From a virus (lineage: Duplodnaviria; Heunggongvirae; Uroviricota; Caudoviricetes), in the IMG/VR virus record IMGVR_UViG_2909288124_000002: DNA of 35,851 nucleotides. The stretch is one strand, 5' to 3'. Each line of letters begins with the position of its first letter. Within the stretch, counting starts at the first letter, position 1. Shown here one piece after another: positions 25,800 to 35,851 of the stretch. The notes beneath the pieces were generated by a model, which worked only from the letters and a program-made list of their open reading frames with translations, had not been told where the DNA came from and did no database searches. The position numbers and the translations under genes are program-made.

Positions 25800-25825
<26 letters not shown>

Positions 25826-26345
25826 TCAGCAACCCCGGTATCAGTTCATCCAGCGCGGCTGCTTTGTTCATGGCTTTGATGATATCCCGTTTCAGGAAAT
25901 CAACATGTCGGTTTTCCAGTTCCGGAAAACGCCGCTGCACCGACAGGGGGATCCCGTCGAGAATACTGGCAATTTCACCTGCGATCCGCGACAGCACGAA
26001 AGTACAGAATGCGGTTTCCACCACTTCAGCGGAGTCTCTGGCATTTTTCAGCTCCTGTGCGTCGGCCTGCGCACGCGTAAGTCGATGGCGTTCGTACTCA
26101 ATAGTCCCTGGCTGGAGATCTGTCTCGCTGGCCTGCCGCAGTTCTTCAACTTCCCGGCGCAGCTTTTCGTTCTCAATTTCAGCATCCCTTTCGGCATACC
26201 ATCTTATAACGGCGGCAGAGTCATAAAGCACCTCATTACCCTTGCCACCGCCTCGCAGAACGGGCATTCCCTGTTCCTGCCAGTTCTGAATGGTACGGAT
26301 ACTCGCACCGAAAATGTCAGCCAGCTGCTTTTTGTTGACTTCCAT
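25800..26345 (-). CDS. nu1: Terminase small subunit Nu1 (181 aa)
   Basis: ORF MEVNKKQLADIFGASIRTIQNWQEQGMPVLRGGGKGNEVLYD... matches lambda Nu1; overlaps A by 26 nt as in lambda. Confidence 0.94.
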
Positions 26346-26733
26346 TGTTCATTCCACGGCCAAAAACAGAGAAAGGAAACGACAGAGGCCCAAAAGCTCG
26401 TTTTCAGCACCTGTCGTTTCCTTTCTTTTCAGGGGGTATTTTAAATAAAAACATTAAGTTACGACGAAGAAGAACGGAAATGCCTTAAACCGGAAAATTT
26501 TCATAAATAGCGAAAACCCGCGAGGTCGCCGCCCCGTAACCTGTCGGATCACCGGAAAGGACCCGTAAAGTGGTAATGATTATCATCTACATATCACAAC
26601 GTGCGTGGAGGCCATCAAACCACGTCAAATAATCAATTATGACGCAGGTATCGTATTAATTGATCTGCATCAACTTAACGTAAAAACAACTTCAGACAAT
26701 ACAAATCAGCGACACTGAATACGGGGCAACCTC
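26346..26733 (-). other. Lambda-type cos region (cosB, cosN, cosQ); cosN 12-nt cohesive end AGGTCGCCGCCC at 26523-26534 (reverse complement of GGGCGGCGACCT)
   Basis: Sequence upstream of Nu1 reads as the reverse complement of the lambda left end (GGGCGGCGACCTCGCGGGTTTTCGCTATTTATGAAAATTTTCCGG...) joined to the lambda right end (...CGGTGATCCGACAGGTTACG); recalled from memory. Confidence 0.85.
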
Positions 26734-26967
26734 ATGTCAACGAAGAACAGAACCCGCAGAACAACAACCCGCAACATCCGCTTTCCTAACCAAATGATTG
26801 AACAAATTAACATCGCTCTTGAGCAAAAAGGGTCCGGGAATTTCTCAGCCTGGGTCATTGAAGCCTGCCGCCGGAGACTGTGCTCAGAAAAAAGAGTTTC
26901 TTCTGAAGCAAACAAAGAAAAGAGTGACATTACTGAATTGCTCAGAAAACAGGTCAGACCAGATTGA
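26734..26967 (+). CDS. ynfO: Small prophage protein (YnfO-like, 77 aa)
   Basis: ORF MSTKNRTRRTTTRNIRFPNQMIEQINIALEQKGSGNFSAWVIEACRRRL...; position between cos/Nu1 and ydfO as in Qin. Symbol from memory of gene order. Confidence 0.6.
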   Translation: MSTKNRTRRTTTRNIRFPNQMIEQINIALEQKGSGNFSAWVIEACRRRLCSEKRVSSEANKEKSDITELLRKQVRPD

Positions 26968-27024
26968 AGCAATTTAGATAATCGTGCAGACTACGCCCCC
27001 TCATATCACATGGAAGGTTTATCT

Positions 27025-27435
27025 ATGGATCAGGTAGTCATTTTTAAACAAATATTTGATAAAGTTCGAAACGATTTAAACTATCAATGGTTTTATTCTG
27101 AGCTAAAACGTCACAATGTCTCACATTACATTTACTATTTAGCCACAGAGAATGTTCATATTGTATTAAAAAATGATAATACAGTGTTATTAAAGGGCCT
27201 AAAAAACATTGTGTCTGTCAAATTTTCAAAGGATAGGCATCTTATAGAAACGACCTCTAATAAGCTGAAATCCAGAGAGATCACATTTCAGGAATACAGA
27301 AGAAACCTTGCTAAAGCAGGAGTTTTTCGGTGGGTTACAAATATCCACGAACAAAAAAGATATTACTATACCTTTGATAATTCATTACTATTTACTGAAA
27401 GCATCCAGAAAACTACACAGATCTTACCACGCTAA
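27025..27435 (+). CDS. ydfO: DUF1398-family prophage protein YdfO (136 aa)
   Basis: From [43 protein letters not shown]...; the ORF track begins 5 codons upstream. Confidence 0.8.
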
Positions 27436-27586
27436 ACCATAACGTCCGGCTTCTCTCACTCCTGAGCCGGACTGCATTGGTTTAATAAAAACCATCAACA
27501 ATTGTGATTTAGATATTCGGAACCATTCAAATATAACAAAACCCCGTAAAAACGAGGTTTATGGATAAATTTTATTATTGAATACA

Positions 27587-27760
27587 TCAGATTAAATTAA
27601 TCTTGACATCATAGCTTTCAAGACCCGTCATTTTTTCCCGTGCGGTAAACTGAATACTGGTAACTTCTTTCCCGGTCTTTTTCTTAAGTTCAATAATTTT
27701 TTTTGTTATATATTCAGAAATATCTGCTTCTGCTTTTGTTTTTAAGTTTTCAATATTCAT
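27587..27760 (-). CDS. gnsB: GnsA/GnsB-family small protein (57 aa)
   Basis: Hand-translated minus-strand ORF MNIENLKTKAEADISEYITKKIIELKKKTGKEVTSIQFTAREKMTGLESYDVKINLI, preceded by AGAGGAA; below the ORF-track size cutoff. Confidence 0.75.
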   Translation of the reverse strand: MNIENLKTKAEADISEYITKKIIELKKKTGKEVTSIQFTAREKMTGLESYDVKINLI

Positions 27761-27931
27761 CATTTCCTCTTTTAGTCTGTTATGACTTTCCAGTTACACA
27801 GTAAGTCGATTATATGGTGCAAACGTGTAAAAGATAAGATGAAACATCGCAATAATCAACATACGATAGTCTAAATTTTACACAAACAGACAAAGAGAAT
27901 TTTCCTGAATTATCAATGCAATAGCATCAAA

Positions 27932-28162
27932 TCAACTCAAGAGCCTTATTGCTGCTTCCAGAATTTCTTCTGAAGTAACATGTCGATCCGCGGCTACATA
28001 AATGACTTTATGATCTCCGGTCAGAGATGGAAACCCTGCGGCCATTACAGTAAGGTGTGTTTTTTCGCCATTTGGATATTCACGCATGATGGTGTTAACT
28101 CCAGTCATCGCTGGCACTACCACTGCTGGTTCAGAGTTAAAAAAAACTATGATTTTTTTCAT
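27932..28162 (-). CDS. Hypothetical small protein (about 76 aa)
   Basis: ORF from MKKIIVFFNSEPAVVVPAMTGVNTIMREYPNGEKTHLTVMAAGFP...; family not recognised; start uncertain (ORF track begins at 28204). Confidence 0.45.
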   Translation of the reverse strand: MKKIIVFFNSEPAVVVPAMTGVNTIMREYPNGEKTHLTVMAAGFPSLTGDHKVIYVAADRHVTSEEILEAAIRLLS

Positions 28163-28433
28163 GATGTTACCGTAGTATGTGAGTATCCATCGAATAGACA
28201 CCAAGCAAAAAAGCTCCCGAAGGAGCCTTCATTTTCACTTTTTTAAATCCAACGACAGACGGCTGGCATTTAAGTATTGTGAAATATTATCAAATGTAAT
28301 CATCATTGATTTACAAAAGATACATTTTGCCCCGAAAGGATTCATGTCAGAAACATCAAAAGATGATGTTCTATACTGGGAACCATGACAACACGGGCAT
28401 CTAAAGTGAATATGGTTTGTAATATTGTCTACC

Positions 28434-28646
28434 TCAAAGCGCCACTACATGAACAGCGGCAGGACCTTTAGGTCCGTTCTCAATACCAAATTCAACTTCC
28501 TGATTCTCAGTTAATGTTTTGAAATCGTTGCTCTGAATTGCTGAGAAATGGACAAACACATCTTTGCTGCCATCTTTCGGCGTGATGAAACCAAAACCTT
28601 TTTCAGGGTTAAACCATTTCACTAAACCAGTCATTTTGTTAGACAT
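28434..28646 (-). CDS. cspI: Cold shock protein CspI (70 aa)
   Basis: [73 protein letters not shown] with RNP1/RNP2 cold-shock domain motifs. Confidence 0.9.
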
Positions 28647-29008
28647 AATTATTACCTTTTGAAGAAATTAGCCCTTGGGCAGAATGGTCCGAAAAAAAAT
28701 ATCAGAGAGAAAAACCAACAAGGAAATCTCAAGAGGTACAAATAATAAAATTATAACAATGACTGCTTCAGATAAATTTGTAACAAACCAGAACACCATT
28801 AACGCATGATTAACCACCCATAGCAAGGATTACTTTTGTAAAGAAAAACACAGCAATGAAAGAATAGCTTTATTTATTAATAAAACGTGTCATTCTGATT
28901 AAGACCTTTTATCTTACCCTTAAGATTTCAGGAATTTTGGCTCATGGAAGAGTCCTTTTTATTTAAATTTTACATTCCGCGATGTAAATGTTCCGATTTA
29001 ATATTACC

Positions 29009-30032
<1,024 letters not shown>

Positions 30033-30036
<4 letters not shown>

Positions 30037-30344
30037 AGATATTTATGATGAGGACGCTCGTGCTTATTGGCAGGATTTTCAATCTTAAAGGAGTATTGAT
30101 GCTGCAGATAAGACTCAACTTTTTCTGACAATTTTTCTGCTACTTCCAGGAAGACTTGCCGGACGCTCCTTCTGGCTGCTGCCTCATAAAACTCCAGCGC
30201 AGCTCCTTCAACACGGTCCATGGCGACATCCAGGTCAAAAATTTCACCGTCAAAGCGTTCTTTGTCCTGTAAGGCTACAGTTACCGTAACTTTATTCTCA
30301 AAATTACGGACTCCTTTCACAACCAGTTCATAGTCTTGAGTCAT
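30033..30344 (-). CDS. ydfR: YdfR (DUF1327) lysis-cassette-associated protein (103 aa)
   Basis: ORF MTQDYELVVKGVRNFENKVTVTVALQDKERFDGEIFDLDVAMD...; located between holin and endolysin. Confidence 0.8.
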
Positions 30345-30348
30345 TGGA

Positions 30349-30564
30349 TTACTCTCCTCTCGCAGCCTTACGCCTGTCTTCTTTAATCTTGAAATAAAGA
30401 TTTGTCAGATACGTCAGCAGGCCAAAAACCAGGCTACCCAGCACACCGATTGCAGCCCACTGTGACGGAGTTACTTTATCGAGTAACTGCAATGCCCAGA
30501 AACCAGCATTACCCGCCGATGTGCCATAGGCAACACCTGTTGTTAACTTATCCATTGATTTCAT
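30349..30564 (-). CDS. essQ: Pinholin, phage 21 S-type class II holin (71 aa, dual-start MKSMDK)
   Basis: From [71 protein letters not shown]; two TMDs; GAGGA Shine-Dalgarno before the ATG at 30564. The ORF track extends to 30639. Confidence 0.85.
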
Positions 30565-30783
30565 ATCCTCACCCCGATGTACACGGATGGTGCAATATGT
30601 TTGAAAAGATCGGAGTCTACGGGGTAGTTTTGACAGCACACGTTGTTCTCAACGGCGCTAAAAAAACATACACATTAAAAATGTGGGTAATTATTTTGAA
30701 AGAAAGTCATATATAAAATAATAATACGAGAAATGTTTTCATATTTAGTGTACTGTATACGGCCATTTATACAGGAAAAGCCT

Positions 30784-30954
30784 ATGTCAGAACGTAAAAA
30801 CTCAAAATCACGCCGTAATTATCTCGTTAAATGTTCCTGCCCAAACTGCACCCAAGAGTCAGAACACAGTTTTTCAAGAGTACAAAAAGGTGCCCTTTTG
30901 ATCTGCCCTCATTGCAACAAAGTATTCCAGACAAATCTTAAAGCTGTAGCCTGA
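30784..30954 (+). CDS. Putative small zinc-ribbon protein (56 aa), unknown function
   Basis: ORF MSERKNSKSRRNYLVKCSCPNCTQESEHSFSRVQKGALLICPHCNKVFQTNLKAVA with CPNC...CPHC pairs; AGGAAAAG Shine-Dalgarno 4 nt before the ATG; followed by a hairpin terminator. Confidence 0.55.
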   Translation: MSERKNSKSRRNYLVKCSCPNCTQESEHSFSRVQKGALLICPHCNKVFQTNLKAVA

Positions 30955-31012
30955 TTGATTTTATTAGTAACAAGTATTTTTTATATTTTAATAATATATT
31001 TAAAGCAGATAA

Positions 31013-31040
31013 TAAAAAACCCGCCTGAGCGGGTTTGAGA
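31013..31040. terminator. Bidirectional intrinsic terminator (cspB 3' end and small plus-strand ORF)
   Basis: Hairpin AAACCCGC-CTGA-GCGGGTTT flanked by an A-run on one side and a T-rich tract on the other; the minus-strand reading gives stem then TTTTTTATTATC. Confidence 0.65.
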
Positions 31041-31317
31041 TTGTGGTGCTTTTTGTGGGAGTCATCCACTTACGCACTTTGTTTTGCCATGCCAGCAGTT
31101 AGCTTCTGCTGTAAAACTATTCATGCAGCAAACCTGCACTTCACCACAATGGTTAGCATACTTTTCCTGATTAAGATTTTGCCAAATATGCTAGCCATTG
31201 TTTCATGTATTGGACCTCCTTACTTTTTATTAAAGAGATCCAATATTCACTACTCTGTCCGTATCTCTACTCAGGCATCAGCCTTCTTCGTTATCGTATA
31301 CAGACGAGCGATGAATT

Positions 31318-31533
31318 TTAATCAGTAATGATGACATTTGCTGCTGCAGGACCTTTAGCACCACTCTCTATAGAGAAGGTAACCTTTTGACCTTCAAATA
31401 AGGTTCGATAATTATCATTCTGAATCGCAGAAAAATGCACAAACACATCTTTACTACCATCAACAGGAGAAATAAAGCCGAAACCTTTATCAGCGTTAAA
31501 CCATTTTACTAAACCAGTCATTTTATTTGACAT
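31318..31533 (-). CDS. cspB: Cold shock protein CspB (71 aa)
   Basis: [74 protein letters not shown]. Confidence 0.92.
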
Positions 31534-31833
31534 TCTACATTCCTTAACTTGAGCCTTTCGGCATAAATGGTTTGCATAACAGAAACGACTTCGTACTTAA
31601 TTGGAGAGACTCAAAGAAGGAATAAGTGAATAACACCTGAAATGAGAACTGCTTTAGTAAACTACTTCGTATATCGTCTGTTCTTCAAACCGACGCAATC
31701 ATTAACGCATAGTTGAACATATGAAGCAATGTTTATTTTAGACATCCAGCCATCTTCAACCCCATCAAAAAACTATAGCTTTCTTCAGGAACGTGTGTAT
31801 AGTGCGCCAAGTTATCAGTATTAAGGAATTTTT

Positions 31834-32046
31834 TTGTCCCGTAAAATGACAGGAATTGTCAAAACCTTTGACGGCAAAAGCGGCAAGGGTCTTATCACCC
31901 CATCCGATGGTCGTATCGATGTCCAGCTTCATGTTTCAGCGCTCAATCTCCGCGATGCAGAAGAAATTACCACCGGATTACGCGTGGAATTTTGCCGGAT
32001 AAATGGTCTGCGTGGCCCTTCAGCTGCCAATGTTTACCTTTCATGA
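31834..32046 (+). CDS. cspF: Cold shock protein homolog CspF (70 aa)
   Basis: [73 protein letters not shown]. Confidence 0.9.
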
Positions 32047-32467
32047 GCTATATTAAAGCTTTAATTTCAGGCCCCATCGGATCACACATGGAGAGTTTTT
32101 ATGAATAACCCCGTCTGTCTTGATGACTGGTTGATTGGCTTTAAAAGCTTATGCTGTACTTTGGCCGTAATAGCTCTGCTAATAATATAATAAGCAGACT
32201 CATTGTGTTTAGGGACATTGTACTGGAAGAAAACATTTTAAACATCAGGCAAATAACCAAGTCACCAGCTAAATAATAAGTTAACAGACATGAGTCCCGG
32301 GATGAGATTCAACATTACCATTGCCCCATTTAAAGCACAAAACCCGCTCATCAGCAGGTTTTCTACTTTTTCTTAACGTCGGGTATACAAAGCCCATCGT
32401 TGAAAAAATTTTATCCATATTTTTTGAAAAATGCAAACATCATGTCGCCATCTTCAGCAAAAATCAT

Positions 32468-33220
32468 TTATCTCGTCACCTTCCTCAATTGCGCTTCCGC
32501 GTATGCTTCTTCCTGCCAGCACTTTGTTACCAGTTTACCAATGACGTCCGCATACCCCTTATACCACTGATAATCGGTCAGGTCTGGTACCAGCTTCTGG
32601 ACATGACGTCGTGCCAGCGTGGTCGGTAAACGACTAAACCGGTTTCCATTACAACGCCCACAAATCTTATATACCGGTACGCCATGAAACCGGGTTCTTT
32701 TTTCATCCAGAACAATCCCTTTACCCTTACACCCTCTGCACGCTGTGCTGGCTTCGCCCTTACCATGGCAATGCTGACATAGTTCCTTCACCCATTCTTC
32801 CTTGATTACAGATTCCCCGCGTCTGTAGTGTTTCACCACTTCGCGCAATACATTATAAAATCCCGTACCTGAACAATGCTCACAGCGAGCCTTACTTGCC
32901 GCAGACCTGGAGTAATCAGCAAAGGCAAAACTCACGAGGTAAGGAATAATCTGTAACCGGATTTCTTCACTCAATTTGTTCAATGTCGGGTTATCCAGTG
33001 CCATCGCGTAATTTAGCAGGCCTTCAATCGCAAACTGAGGGTCCTGAACACCAACTTTTGCCAGAAATAAGGCCAACCCAAGTGGTGCTTTCGACTGCAC
33101 CATCCCCTGCGCTGCCATTACATCCGTAATTGTTAAACAACCGGTGCCTGTCGCTGGAGCGTCATCGCTCAATTTTGGAGATTTTGGGGAGTAATATTTT
33201 GGTAAGGCTTCAAGGTTCAT
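32468..33220 (-). CDS. quuQ: Late gene antiterminator Q (phage 21/82-type, 250 aa)
   Basis: From MNLEALPKYYSPKSPKLSDDAP...; Cys-rich zinc-binding region CEHCSGTG...CQHCHGKGEASTACRGCKGKG...CGRCNGN. The ORF track begins 10 codons upstream. Confidence 0.85.
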   Translation of the reverse strand: MNLEALPKYYSPKSPKLSDDAPATGTGCLTITDVMAAQGMVQSKAPLGLALFLAKVGVQDPQFAIEGLLNYAMALDNPTLNKLSEEIRLQIIPYLVSFAFADYSRSAASKARCEHCSGTGFYNVLREVVKHYRRGESVIKEEWVKELCQHCHGKGEASTACRGCKGKGIVLDEKRTRFHGVPVYKICGRCNGNRFSRLPTTLARRHVQKLVPDLTDYQWYKGYADVIGKLVTKCWQEEAYAEAQLRKVTR

Positions 33221-33233
33221 GCTCGTTCTCCAC

Positions 33234-34283
33234 TTACACCAGTACGCCAATTGCCAGCGCGCGATCGATAAAACGAAATATCAGCTCCAGTTGGGAGCCA
33301 TACTTATCTTCAAATGCCACTGTATCCGTATGCAGCTCGTTGTGATGCTTTCTGCACAAAGGCAACACAAAGAGATCATGTGCTTTTGTTCCCATTCCGC
33401 CCTGCCCGTGACCAATCAGATGATGCGGATCGTCGGCTGGCATACCGCAGCAAGCACACGGCTGTGTCTTAACCCAACGTGTGTATTTCTCCTTAACCCA
33501 GCGGCGACGTTTAGGCAGCTTCATGAAAGATTCCGGAGACTCTGGATCAACGGTGATGCTTACCACCGTCTTTTCCTGTGGTGATTTTTGTTGCTGGTGG
33601 GCGTAAGGCAACGGTGCAAGATTTTTTGTGCGTTGTTTCAATATGCTGGTGGCGGTCTGCTCTCCCGGTACGATGTCGCTTTCGCGGTACACCGAGCAGA
33701 TTTTTTCCGCTGGTAATCCCAGCGAACGACGCGATACAGCCTCAGGTAGTGCATCCACCACCTGATTGCAGACCGCCCACCAGGATAATTCAGCCAAAGA
33801 TAATTCCCGCTCCTGCGTACCGCTTATTGCGTGACGGATGACGTCAATCACCCATGCTGTCAGATTTTGTTGAGCAAGCAGCTCCAGTGATTCCGATGTC
33901 TGGTCACGCAGTTGGTTGTCGCAGTGCCAGCACAACACCATTGCGCCGGTACCATAACGGTGAATGACTGTTTCAGTGTGATGGTAATCGCCATTAGGCC
34001 ACTGGCAGGATGTAACATGACGTAATAGCCAGTCGGACAATGCGCCAACGCCGCCAGCAGCACGAATCACCCGTTCGTTACTAAAAAACGGCAGCAATGT
34101 TTTGTCTTCCGCCAGCGGCTGGCGAACGGCAGGAACGACTCCGGATGGCAGATTACGCATGCTTTTTGGTTCCGGTTCCACCAGCACTCGAGGATTATGA
34201 AATATCTGTATGGATTCACGGCCCGGCTTAAGGACCACCAGCCCAAGCTCAGGCACCAGAACAGGTCTAAGTAATACCCGCAC
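33234..34283 (-). CDS. ydfU: YdfU-like DUF968 protein with C-terminal HNH-like zinc-finger motif
   Basis: ORF ...CACCGMPADDPHHLIGHGQGGMGTKAHDLFVLPLCRKHHNELH... Start uncertain: GTG at 34283 directly follows the upstream ORF stop (TAA-C-GTG); the ORF track extends to 34322. Confidence 0.75.
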   Translation of the reverse strand: MRVLLRPVLVPELGLVVLKPGRESIQIFHNPRVLVEPEPKSMRNLPSGVVPAVRQPLAEDKTLLPFFSNERVIRAAGGVGALSDWLLRHVTSCQWPNGDYHHTETVIHRYGTGAMVLCWHCDNQLRDQTSESLELLAQQNLTAWVIDVIRHAISGTQERELSLAELSWWAVCNQVVDALPEAVSRRSLGLPAEKICSVYRESDIVPGEQTATSILKQRTKNLAPLPYAHQQQKSPQEKTVVSITVDPESPESFMKLPKRRRWVKEKYTRWVKTQPCACCGMPADDPHHLIGHGQGGMGTKAHDLFVLPLCRKHHNELHTDTVAFEDKYGSQLELIFRFIDRALAIGVLV

Positions 34284-34284
34284 G

Positions 34285-34563
34285 TTACCTCCAGATCCGT
34301 TGCTGGAAAGTGCGGGACGCACGTGGTGGGCGTTCGGAATAAGGCAGCCTGACAGAGATTATCCAGTGCCGATAGTCGAGACTGAGAGCTTTCTTAACCT
34401 CGAACCCGCGCCTGCGGTAAGAATGAATCAGCCATTCGGCCTGTTCTGCAGTGCATGGAGGGTGCTGGAACCATTCAGACTTGAATGCGTGAGAATACCG
34501 CCCGTGCGTGCAGGCAAGAACGGGCGAATTATCAGAATTGTAATATTTTGCGTTGCGTGCCAT
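34285..34563 (-). CDS. Hypothetical protein (92 aa), apparently translationally coupled to ydfU
   Basis: ORF MARNAKYYNSDNSPVLACTHGRYSHAFKSEWFQHPPCTAEQAEWLIHSYRRRGFEV...; stop abuts the candidate ydfU start; family not recognised. Confidence 0.5.
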   Translation of the reverse strand: MARNAKYYNSDNSPVLACTHGRYSHAFKSEWFQHPPCTAEQAEWLIHSYRRRGFEVKKALSLDYRHWIISVRLPYSERPPRASRTFQQRIWR

Positions 34564-34629
34564 CGGTTTTCTCCGGTGGCACGGTGTTACTCAGCGGGAG
34601 TTCAGCCCCGCGCAAGATTGTAGATGAGT

Positions 34630-34881
34630 TTATTCTCCTGAAAAAGCAGAAAAGCCAGCTTTTATTCCGATCTCTTTCAATGCCTGTAATGAAGTGACAA
34701 ACTCACCTTCGCGCAAGATAAATCCGTCCGTGACCCGAGCATCCACAAAATTAATTAACGCAGCCCCATTCTTTCGCAAACACATAATGCGGTAATGACT
34801 AACAAGATTTCCATTTTCAACGCACACAGCATAGAGGCCATCTTCACAAAAAATTTTACGCAGTTCTTCGATGTTCATCAT
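34630..34881 (-). CDS. rem: Rem protein (83 aa), Qin prophage-type
   Basis: ORF MMNIEELRKIFCEDGLYAVCVENGNLVSHYRIMCLRKNGAALINFVDARVTDGFILREGEFVTSLQALKEIGIKAGFSAFSGE. Confidence 0.8.
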   Translation of the reverse strand: MMNIEELRKIFCEDGLYAVCVENGNLVSHYRIMCLRKNGAALINFVDARVTDGFILREGEFVTSLQALKEIGIKAGFSAFSGE

Positions 34882-35005
34882 CAGAATCCTTCCGGATAAT
34901 TAGCTCTCCCCTTTAAGGGACCATCCCTCTTATCCCTGCGCGCTACTTAAGTATTTTTGATTCTATTCCGGCACCGTCCAGAACTTCAAACGCATTGAAA
35001 ATAAA

Positions 35006-35032
35006 AACAAAAACCCGCCGAAGCGGGTTAAG
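35006..35032 (-). terminator. Intrinsic terminator at the end of the relB-relE-hokD operon
   Basis: Minus-strand hairpin AACCCGC-TTCG-GCGGGTT followed by TTTTTGTTTTTATTTTC. Confidence 0.7.
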
Positions 35033-35097
35033 TGCGGGTGCGTTGAGGATGCCTGCCACATCAGAGGTGGCGAGGGATTTCTCCCCCGCCGGGTCTC

Positions 35098-35253
35098 TTA
35101 CTCCTCAGGTTCGTAAGCTGTGAAGACAGCGACCTCCGTCTGGCCGGTTCGGATTCGTACCTCGCAGAGGTCTTTCCTCGTTACCAGTGCCGTCACTATG
35201 ACGGTTAAACAGATGACGATCAGGGCGATTAACATCGCCTTTTGCTGCTTCAT
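35098..35253 (-). CDS. hokD: Hok-family small membrane toxin HokD/RelF (51 aa)
   Basis: Hand-translated minus-strand ORF MKQQKAMLIALIVICLTVIVTALVTRKDLCEVRIRTGQTEVAVFTAYEPEE; below the ORF-track cutoff. Confidence 0.9.
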   Translation of the reverse strand: MKQQKAMLIALIVICLTVIVTALVTRKDLCEVRIRTGQTEVAVFTAYEPEE

Positions 35254-35324
35254 AGCCTGCTTCTCCTGTCAACGCAAAGCAGAAGTGTCACCTTCGGTGC
35301 GAAACAGAGATGTCATGCTTTGGT

Positions 35325-35612
35325 TCAGAGAATGCGTTTGACCGCCTCGCTATATACTTCCGAGCGTTCTCTTTTCCCAACAGAAATCACGAAAACGACA
35401 ACTTTCTCGTCTATAACCTGGTATACAAGGCGATAGCCTGAAGACCGGAGCTTAATCTTGTAACAATCAGGCATACCACGGAGCTTGTTTGCTTCAATCC
35501 GGGGTGACTCAAGTACTTCAACCAGCTTCTTTTTCAACTGTTCACGTACCGTCGAGCCCAGCTTTCGCCATTCCTTTAGTGCCCGCTCGTCAAAATCCAG
35601 AAAATACGCCAT
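35325..35612 (-). CDS. relE: RelE mRNA interferase toxin (95 aa)
   Basis: ORF MAYFLDFDERALKEWRKLGSTVREQLKKKLVEVLESPRIEANKLRGMPDCYKIKLRSSGYRLVYQVIDEKVVVFVISVGKRERSEVYSEAVKRIL. Confidence 0.95.
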   Translation of the reverse strand: MAYFLDFDERALKEWRKLGSTVREQLKKKLVEVLESPRIEANKLRGMPDCYKIKLRSSGYRLVYQVIDEKVVVFVISVGKRERSEVYSEAVKRIL

Positions 35613-35851
35613 CAGAGTTCATCCAGCGTCACACGTACTGGCTTAGGATTACGAAGCCGTTCTTTCACTATCTCCACAAGTTCAGCATCTTCATCACTCA
35701 GGAGTGTCTGTTTGAACGGCAAGCGTTCATTGTCAGCGATATACTCGAGCATGAGACGAAGCGCTTCAGAAGGAGTTACACCCATTTTTTCAAGCGCGGC
35801 GTAAGAACGCGCTTTAAGTTCATCGTCAATACGCAGGTTAATGCTACCCAT
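35612..35851 (-). CDS. relB: RelB antitoxin (79 aa); its start codon is the last 3 nt of the window
   Basis: ORF MGSINLRIDDELKARSYAALEKMGVTPSEALRLMLEYIADNERLPFKQTLLSDEDAELVEIVKERLRNPKPVRVTLDEL; overlaps relE by 1 nt. Confidence 0.95.
   Translation of the reverse strand: MGSINLRIDDELKARSYAALEKMGVTPSEALRLMLEYIADNERLPFKQTLLSDEDAELVEIVKERLRNPKPVRVTLDEL

Follow-up and report, generated by a model that had tools for sequence, protein, structure and literature searches.

What is the small open reading frame (ORF) that lies on the plus strand between the holin gene and cspB, against the direction of late transcription, and does the hairpin behind it end its transcript as well as that of cspB? We followed these questions through a 35,851-nucleotide stretch of viral DNA, here called the window, and through homologous loci in other phages and bacteria. 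A first-pass annotation made from the letters of the window had described a 56-residue ORF with CPNC and CPHC pairs and a good Shine-Dalgarno sequence, had left it unassigned, and had proposed that a bidirectional terminator follows it.

The open reading frame is ynfU

The sequence and the ORF list agreed with that description of the frame and its place (Table 1). The 56-residue product read from the ATG at 30784, MSERKNSKSRRNYLVKCSCPNCTQESEHSFSRVQKGALLICPHCNKVFQTNLKAVA, carries CPNC at residues 19 to 22 and CPHC at residues 41 to 44, and the gene is transcribed against Q, the holin gene, ydfR, the lysozyme gene, and rzpQ. The ORF does have an assignment, however. Positions 30560 to 31330 of the window (771 nucleotides [nt]) are 100% identical to Escherichia coli K-12 MG1655, where the ORF is annotated as ynfU, "putative zinc-binding protein YnfU" (WP_211180497.1), and the same interval was matched in 1,652 of 5,426 complete E. 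coli genomes. The product has families of its own in Pfam (PF23499, 107.3 bits against a cutoff of 27 bits, model positions 1 to 49 of 49) and NCBIfam (NF038384, 79.4 bits against a cutoff of 36 bits, model positions 1 to 51 of 52).

Table 1. Annotated and predicted features around ynfU, in window coordinates
Feature	Position	Strand	Remarks
Holin gene essQ (annotated essD)	30349-30564	-	First gene of the lysis cassette
Alternative sigma-70-like site, TTGAAA-18-AATAAT	30696-30725	+	10/12; Escherichia only
Predicted -10 hexamer, TACTGT	30751-30756	+	Conserved TAnnGT, -33 to -28 from the ATG
Shine-Dalgarno sequence, AGGA	30773-30776	+	7 nt 5' of the ATG at 30784
ynfU coding sequence	30784-30954	+	56 codons plus stop; K-12 identity, family profiles, conservation, published detection
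Predicted intrinsic terminator	31007-31036	-	8-bp stem, 4-nt loop, T-run; consensus scan
Putative conserved structured RNA, unannotated, ~165 nt	31038-31200	-	Five helices; ends at the terminator
cspB (cold-shock protein)	31318-31533	-	ORF list, annotation
cspF	31834-32046	+	Divergent from cspB; third gene of the cassette
Q-type antiterminator gene quuQ/ydfT	32468-33220	-	Upstream edge of the variable slot

YnfU was discovered by ribosome profiling with stalled initiation complexes (Weaver et al. 2019; Weaver, Mohammad, Buskirk, and Storz). That study found it to be the most abundant on immunoblots among the newly found small proteins, saw the protein in uninduced MG1655, and described a "pair of zinc knuckles" with a weak match to the PA0128 zinc domain, with no function assigned (Weaver et al. 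2019). A transposon-reporter screen detected YnfU independently. The ORF is thus an already described E. coli small protein, and the finding is real but not new: the window and the Qin prophage of E. coli K-12 carry the same gene, with 100% identical DNA, the same start, the same neighbors, and the same two CPxC knuckles. What we add to the published description of YnfU are family-wide conservation figures, the contexts outside prophages, the linkage to csp genes, and the reassignment of the terminator. One preprint calls ynfU an "iron metabolism gene"; we did not adopt this label, for which the preprint text gives no supporting evidence.

The start of the gene needed correction. The longest open frame around ynfU in the ORF list runs from 30733 to 30954 on the plus strand and would encode 73 residues, and the first-pass annotation had begun its feature at 30733. 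That position is only an in-frame ATG further upstream. We rejected the 73-residue product because its N-terminal extension is not conserved and because the methionine at 30784 is the start in the MG1655 annotation and in the two family models. At the position of the Shine-Dalgarno sequence, CAGGA[AG] was kept in most of the 34 species loci compared.

Upstream of this start we found a TAnnGT element, which reads GTGTATGGT in most genera and TACTGT in E. coli. A strict pattern recovered it from 67 of 78 species loci, always at the same offset, variants of it stood in most of the others, and it was also present upstream of a distant ynfU homologue (locus L293). We infer that this element is the -10 element of ynfU, which would place the transcription start near 30762 to 30765 and give a leader of about 20 nt. 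In Escherichia, a 7-bp inverted repeat, CTGTATA-N8-TATACAG (30753 to 30774), overlaps the hexamer. We rejected a LexA box at these positions, as the spacing is CTGT-N14-ACAG and not N8 and the repeat is confined to the Escherichia lineage. A Zur box upstream of ynfU, GAAATGTTTTCATATTTAGTGTA, was also rejected: its left half matches that of the Zur box, its right half fits poorly by eye, and it is not conserved in other genera.

Genomic SELEX had recorded RpoD holoenzyme binding and an H-NS flag in the spacer between the holin gene and cspB, and the site was assigned to essQ before ynfU was known. The site assigned to essQ differs from the predicted ynfU promoter and is on the opposite strand. 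On the holin side, a promoter-like site, TTTATA-16-AATAAT (30690 to 30717, minus strand), stands back to back with the ynfU promoter region, and its hexamers are those of the "constitutive RpoD promoter" that genomic SELEX gave for essQ.

Conservation and predicted fold of YnfU

We compared ynfU across loci taken one per species. Residues C19, C22, C41, C44, and H28 were invariant in 77 of 77 loci, and C17 was kept in 74 of the 77. Loss of the cysteine pairs or of the frame in homologues had been named in the first-pass annotation as the sign that would speak against the gene; what we found was invariance of the pairs and a median dN/dS of 0.11 over 858 pairs, with synonymous sites saturated between genera. 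A 30-sequence alignment showed S26-E27-H28-S29-F30, K35, P20, and P42 to be invariant. YnfU is a stand-alone protein of about 55 residues with two CPxC knuckles and an SEHSF motif, as in the family described by PF23499 and NF038384.

Searched with a profile, 1.84 billion representative proteins yielded just 38 matches. The real ones stand alone, are about 55 residues long, and retain CPxC..SEHS..K..LICPxC..LF; no domain fusion was found among the 38, the longer ones being read-through miscalls. The matches that carried a name came almost entirely from the Enterobacteriaceae. Together with the dN/dS values, these results show that the YnfU family is narrow and small and evolves under strong purifying selection.

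The AlphaFold2 model of YnfU showed four short strands at moderate confidence (pLDDT, 64.5). The protein is basic, with 10 lysine or arginine residues against 3 glutamates and a net charge of +7. Compared with PDB sequences, the YnfU profile gave only subsignificant matches: the DNL-type finger of Tim15 (E = 0.041), ribosomal protein L44e (E = 0.057), and PA0128 (E = 1.3). The best non-self Pfam match was PF08274, the N-terminal zinc ribbon of PhnA/YjdM (PA0128, PDB 2akl), at 22.4 bits and under its gathering cutoff of 30.8. This ribbon resembles YnfU in its four cysteines and its size, but PhnA carries an extra C-terminal domain, whereas YnfU stands alone. The DNL-type zinc finger of Tim15/Zim17/Hep1 (PF05180, PDB 2e2z) scored 13.5 bits against a threshold of 27, and the D(N/H)L motif that follows its second knuckle has no conserved counterpart in the YnfU family, whose C-terminal tail varies. 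Both the DNL finger and the L44e/eL42 zinc ribbon are eukaryotic or archaeal and larger than YnfU. PHROGs and PADLOC contained no family for YnfU. These features fit a basic C4 zinc ribbon and point to no specific function. The most likely arrangement is a zinc-ribbon fold in which the two CPxC knuckles share a single zinc ion; here as in the literature, the motif is the ground for predicting that YnfU binds zinc.

The hairpin and a putative structured RNA downstream of cspB

The perfect hairpin reported after the ORF is present at 31017 to 31036, separated from the ynfU stop codon by 62 bases, and reads AAACCCGC-CTGA-GCGGGTTT, an 8-bp stem with a 4-nt loop. Its description as a bidirectional terminator was supported for the strand of cspB and not for that of ynfU. 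A consensus terminator scan called the hairpin solely on the minus strand, where six T residues follow the stem, and a d'Aubenton-Carafa-type score was +33.5 on the minus strand and -14.8 on the plus strand. The plus-strand tail reads TTTGAGATTG, with three T residues after the stem.

Termination of both transcripts at a genuinely bidirectional hairpin is possible but somewhat doubtful. This is the only stable GC-rich hairpin between the convergent genes ynfU and cspB, on the plus strand it is preceded by an A-run and followed by T residues (AAAAAACCCGC..GCGGGTTTGAGATT), and the consensus scan called no other plus-strand terminator 3' of ynfU. Bidirectional intrinsic terminators between convergent genes have reportedly been seen by full-length RNA profiling in E. 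coli. They likewise place one GC-rich hairpin, flanked on its two sides by an A-run and a T-run, between convergent genes; unlike them, the hairpin in the window has a strong T-run on one strand only, so its sequence falls short of what termination in two directions calls for. The weak plus-strand tail, without a scan call, argues in the same direction, as does the lack of a consistent plus-strand terminator after ynfU homologues in other genera. Phage Cyrano also argues against it, since there a near-identical hairpin follows cspB and its 3' RNA although ynfU is absent. We favor, on this comparison, the reading that the hairpin is the terminator of the cspB unit, made up of cspB and the 3' RNA; partial termination of ynfU transcripts at it is possible.

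The first-pass annotation had also noted that Q-modified polymerase would have to pass this hairpin before reaching the holin gene. The geometry bears this out, and the layout recurs: the same arrangement of ynfU and hairpin is found in the deposited phage isolates HannyBb, Tritos, 2H10, PhiR42_1, and PhiR63_1, and the hairpin was intact in 78 of 80 viral loci from IMG/VR. In HannyBb, the annotation of the interval from Q to cspF (L004:4085-6846) lists about 20 tiny ORFs of 90 to 170 nt one after another on a single strand, which looks like overannotation of a stretch that is noncoding or holds an RNA gene.

Between the hairpin and cspB, the alignments pointed to an RNA with a long hairpin and a three-hairpin junction closed by GUGGUG/CACCAC. 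Its nucleotide identity across genera was 70 to 80%, over the same distances at which ynfU synonymous sites saturate. Under the five-helix structure (34 pairs), 92.1% of the cells were paired, as against at most 56.7% with the partners slid. Changes on both sides of a pair were seen at 14 of the 34 pairs and in 30 cells, compared with 5.0 and 7.4 in shuffles, and none of 500 shuffles reached the observed values. The minimum-free-energy fold of the E. coli sequence alone reproduced the structure (z = -3.76). The strand is fixed as cspB sense by the frequent G-U pairs.

The RNA was found in Escherichia, Citrobacter, Enterobacter, Kluyvera, Kosakonia, Superficieibacter, Yokenella, and Scandinavium and in phages PHB10 and Cyrano. 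In Yokenella the RNA comes after cspB and ynfU is on the opposite side, so the RNA belongs to cspB. A covariance model found it once in the window, at 156.7 bits, and found no copy near cspI. Other copies were located at L291:2967-3121 (Cyrano), L003:3684-3835, and L080:4184-4335, and the RNA was present in 1,715 complete E. coli genomes and at 92 plasmid sites. It corresponds to no Rfam family; the sole matches in that database, isrK at 18.3 bits (E = 0.52) and Trp_leader at 21.7 bits (E = 0.23), lay over the terminator region. No annotated feature underlies it among the E. coli RefSeq matches listed, and no small RNA at the ynfU-cspB locus was found in the literature.

A coding role for the spacer between cspB and ynfU was considered and rejected. 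The candidate frames, MKQWLAYLAKS and a cysteine-rich one, are not conserved, indels do not come in multiples of three, and stop codons vary, so we prefer the RNA reading. The region 3' of cspB would then be a noncoding, covarying structured RNA absent from Rfam. It occurs in roughly 1,700 complete E. coli genomes as well as in phages and phage-like plasmids, and it is a modest new lead.

Several smaller observations concern the same region. The 11-codon ORF MKQWLAYLAKS (31170 to 31205, minus strand) lies in the first helix of the RNA behind a very strong Shine-Dalgarno sequence, TAAGGAGGT, in the Escherichia lineage only. The leader of cspB is a full match to the cspA thermoregulator (31302 to 31694, minus strand; Rfam RF01766, 158.8 bits), and the leader of cspF (31765 to 31864, plus strand) showed a mere 14-bit trace of RF01766. 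Cyrano (OV696614.1) has an unannotated cspB homologue, 85% identical and with a long leader (L291:2630-2836), in an 850-nt gap from hicB to the DNA polymerase III alpha gene. At about 84% identity, Cyrano's RNA is shared by some 90 E. coli plasmids, and the RNA is also found on Cyrano-like phage-plasmids.

Genomic context and proposed role

The homologues of ynfU in Enterobacter, Klebsiella, Kosakonia, and more distant bacteria lie in ordinary chromosomal neighborhoods, and this placement indicates that YnfU is not a phage function. Of 80 species loci, 58 had a csp gene no more than 1.3 kb from ynfU, most often as ynfU> <cspB cspF> (24 loci), otherwise as ynfU> <cspB (10 loci), as ynfU> cspF> on the same strand (8 loci), or with csp upstream of ynfU in either orientation; Yokenella has cspF> ynfU> with a gap of 36 nt. 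That the adjacency outlasts rearrangement suggests functional coupling, and some of the synteny may reflect descent rather than selection. Any such coupling is not obligatory, as a csp neighbor is missing from 22 of the 80 species loci and from every distant homologue.

In Escherichia, ynfU, cspB, and cspF sit in the slot between the Q antiterminator and holin genes. The cassette has a GC content of 35 to 43% against 46 to 54% in its flanks, it lies between conserved phage modules, and it is present or absent among relatives: in other phages with this holin (D2, mEp460, 683R6, Stx2 phages, and 434), homology stops just upstream of the holin start. Its expression features are the conserved -10-like element, the promoter-like site, and the YnfU protein seen in uninduced MG1655. 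By its position, its composition, and its presence or absence among relatives, the Escherichia ynfU-cspB-cspF block would be a classic prophage cargo, or moron. Morons known from the lambdoid Q-S slot, stx of Stx phages among them, share the Q-holin position, the lower GC content, and the presence or absence among relatives, and their own promoter and terminator and expression in the lysogen can be likened to those of the ynfU cassette, for which the promoter is predicted. Unlike stx-type cargo, the cassette is of a cold-shock type (ynfU, cspB with its 3' RNA, and cspF), and its members also occur as ordinary chromosomal genes.

Colinearity of the window with K-12 extends over positions 25817 to 35851, at 99.9% identity, and its restriction to this part led us to reject the idea that the entire window is K-12. 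Positions 1 to 25816 are not colinear with MG1655 apart from a few short matching segments. The prophage of the window is fuller than, or different from, the Qin prophage of K-12, or comes from another strain.

We propose that ynfU belongs to a narrow, stand-alone chromosomal gene family of the Enterobacterales whose members usually adjoin cold-shock-domain genes within the Enterobacteriaceae. The block ynfU > < [structured 3' RNA]-cspB cspF > would have been captured as low-GC cargo by Qin-like lambdoid prophages of Escherichia, at the hypervariable slot that runs from the Q antiterminator gene to the holin gene. In the uninduced lysogen, ynfU would be expressed from its own predicted promoter. 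The hairpin would primarily end the convergent transcript of cspB and its 3' RNA and act weakly at best toward ynfU, and Q-modified polymerase would read through it to reach the holin gene. YnfU itself may bind nucleic acid, RNA most likely, or a larger partner, and may act in the setting of the Csp RNA chaperones during cold shock or growth resumption. Taken as a whole, the account of ynfU as a known zinc-ribbon gene of chromosomal family, captured with a csp cassette and followed by a hairpin that is primarily that of cspB, is in our judgment very probably correct. Of the E. coli small proteins that have no assigned function, YnfU is one of the better expressed, and the repeated adjacency to csp genes points to cold shock or nutrient upshift as conditions of interest.

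It is rather unlikely that YnfU is a small protein-binding regulator or zinc handler unrelated to the Csp proteins, its linkage to csp genes being inherited synteny. The adjacency persists through several independent rearrangements, the charge of the protein fits nucleic-acid binding at least equally well, and the similarity scores all fall below significance. A more ambitious proposal joins ynfU, the cspB 3' RNA, cspB, and cspF in one RNA-centered module, with YnfU as an RNA-binding cofactor or regulator and the RNA as a new regulatory family. YnfU would then act on the 3' RNA or with the Csp chaperones, in cold shock or growth resumption, and the RNA would be a structured 3' untranslated region or a small RNA derived from it, in Enterobacteriaceae and their phages. 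We regard this as a speculative and improbable extension of the captured-cassette account.

A phage-specific role for YnfU as a regulator, controlling lysis or late transcription for example by antisense interference with the late transcript or by direct action on the holin, would explain its place on the holin side. The gene is divergent beside the holin gene in Qin-like prophages, and in Klebsiella phage ST13-OXA48phi12.4, where ynfU has no csp gene with it, it is again divergent beside a holin gene, a different one. Most homologues lie in nonprophage chromosomal contexts, however, and phage PHB10 carries ynfU, cspB, and cspF beside an integrase gene and umuDC, distant from the lysis genes; the lack of a PHROG or PADLOC family and the production of YnfU in uninduced cells also argue against such a regulator, which we consider very unlikely. 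A chance open frame, which small size alone could suggest, is refuted by experimental detection, purifying selection, and curated families and has practically no likelihood left.

The captured-cassette account also bears on strain construction. As the "essQ-cspB intergenic region," the locus of ynfU serves as a standard "safe" landing pad, for which Monk et al. (2015) used recombineering arms in primers IM102 and IM106. We mapped one arm to 30840 to 30886, within ynfU codons 19 to 35, and the other to 31111 to 31157, within the cspB 3' RNA. From these positions, the insert replaces ynfU codons 36 to 56, the terminator, and 73 nt at the 3' end of the RNA, and it deletes the second zinc knuckle of YnfU. 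Strains built this way are used routinely, so ynfU is dispensable for growth in the laboratory. The essQ-cspB locus is not intergenic and not necessarily neutral, and what such strains have lost from ynfU, the terminator, and the RNA could matter in low-temperature experiments.
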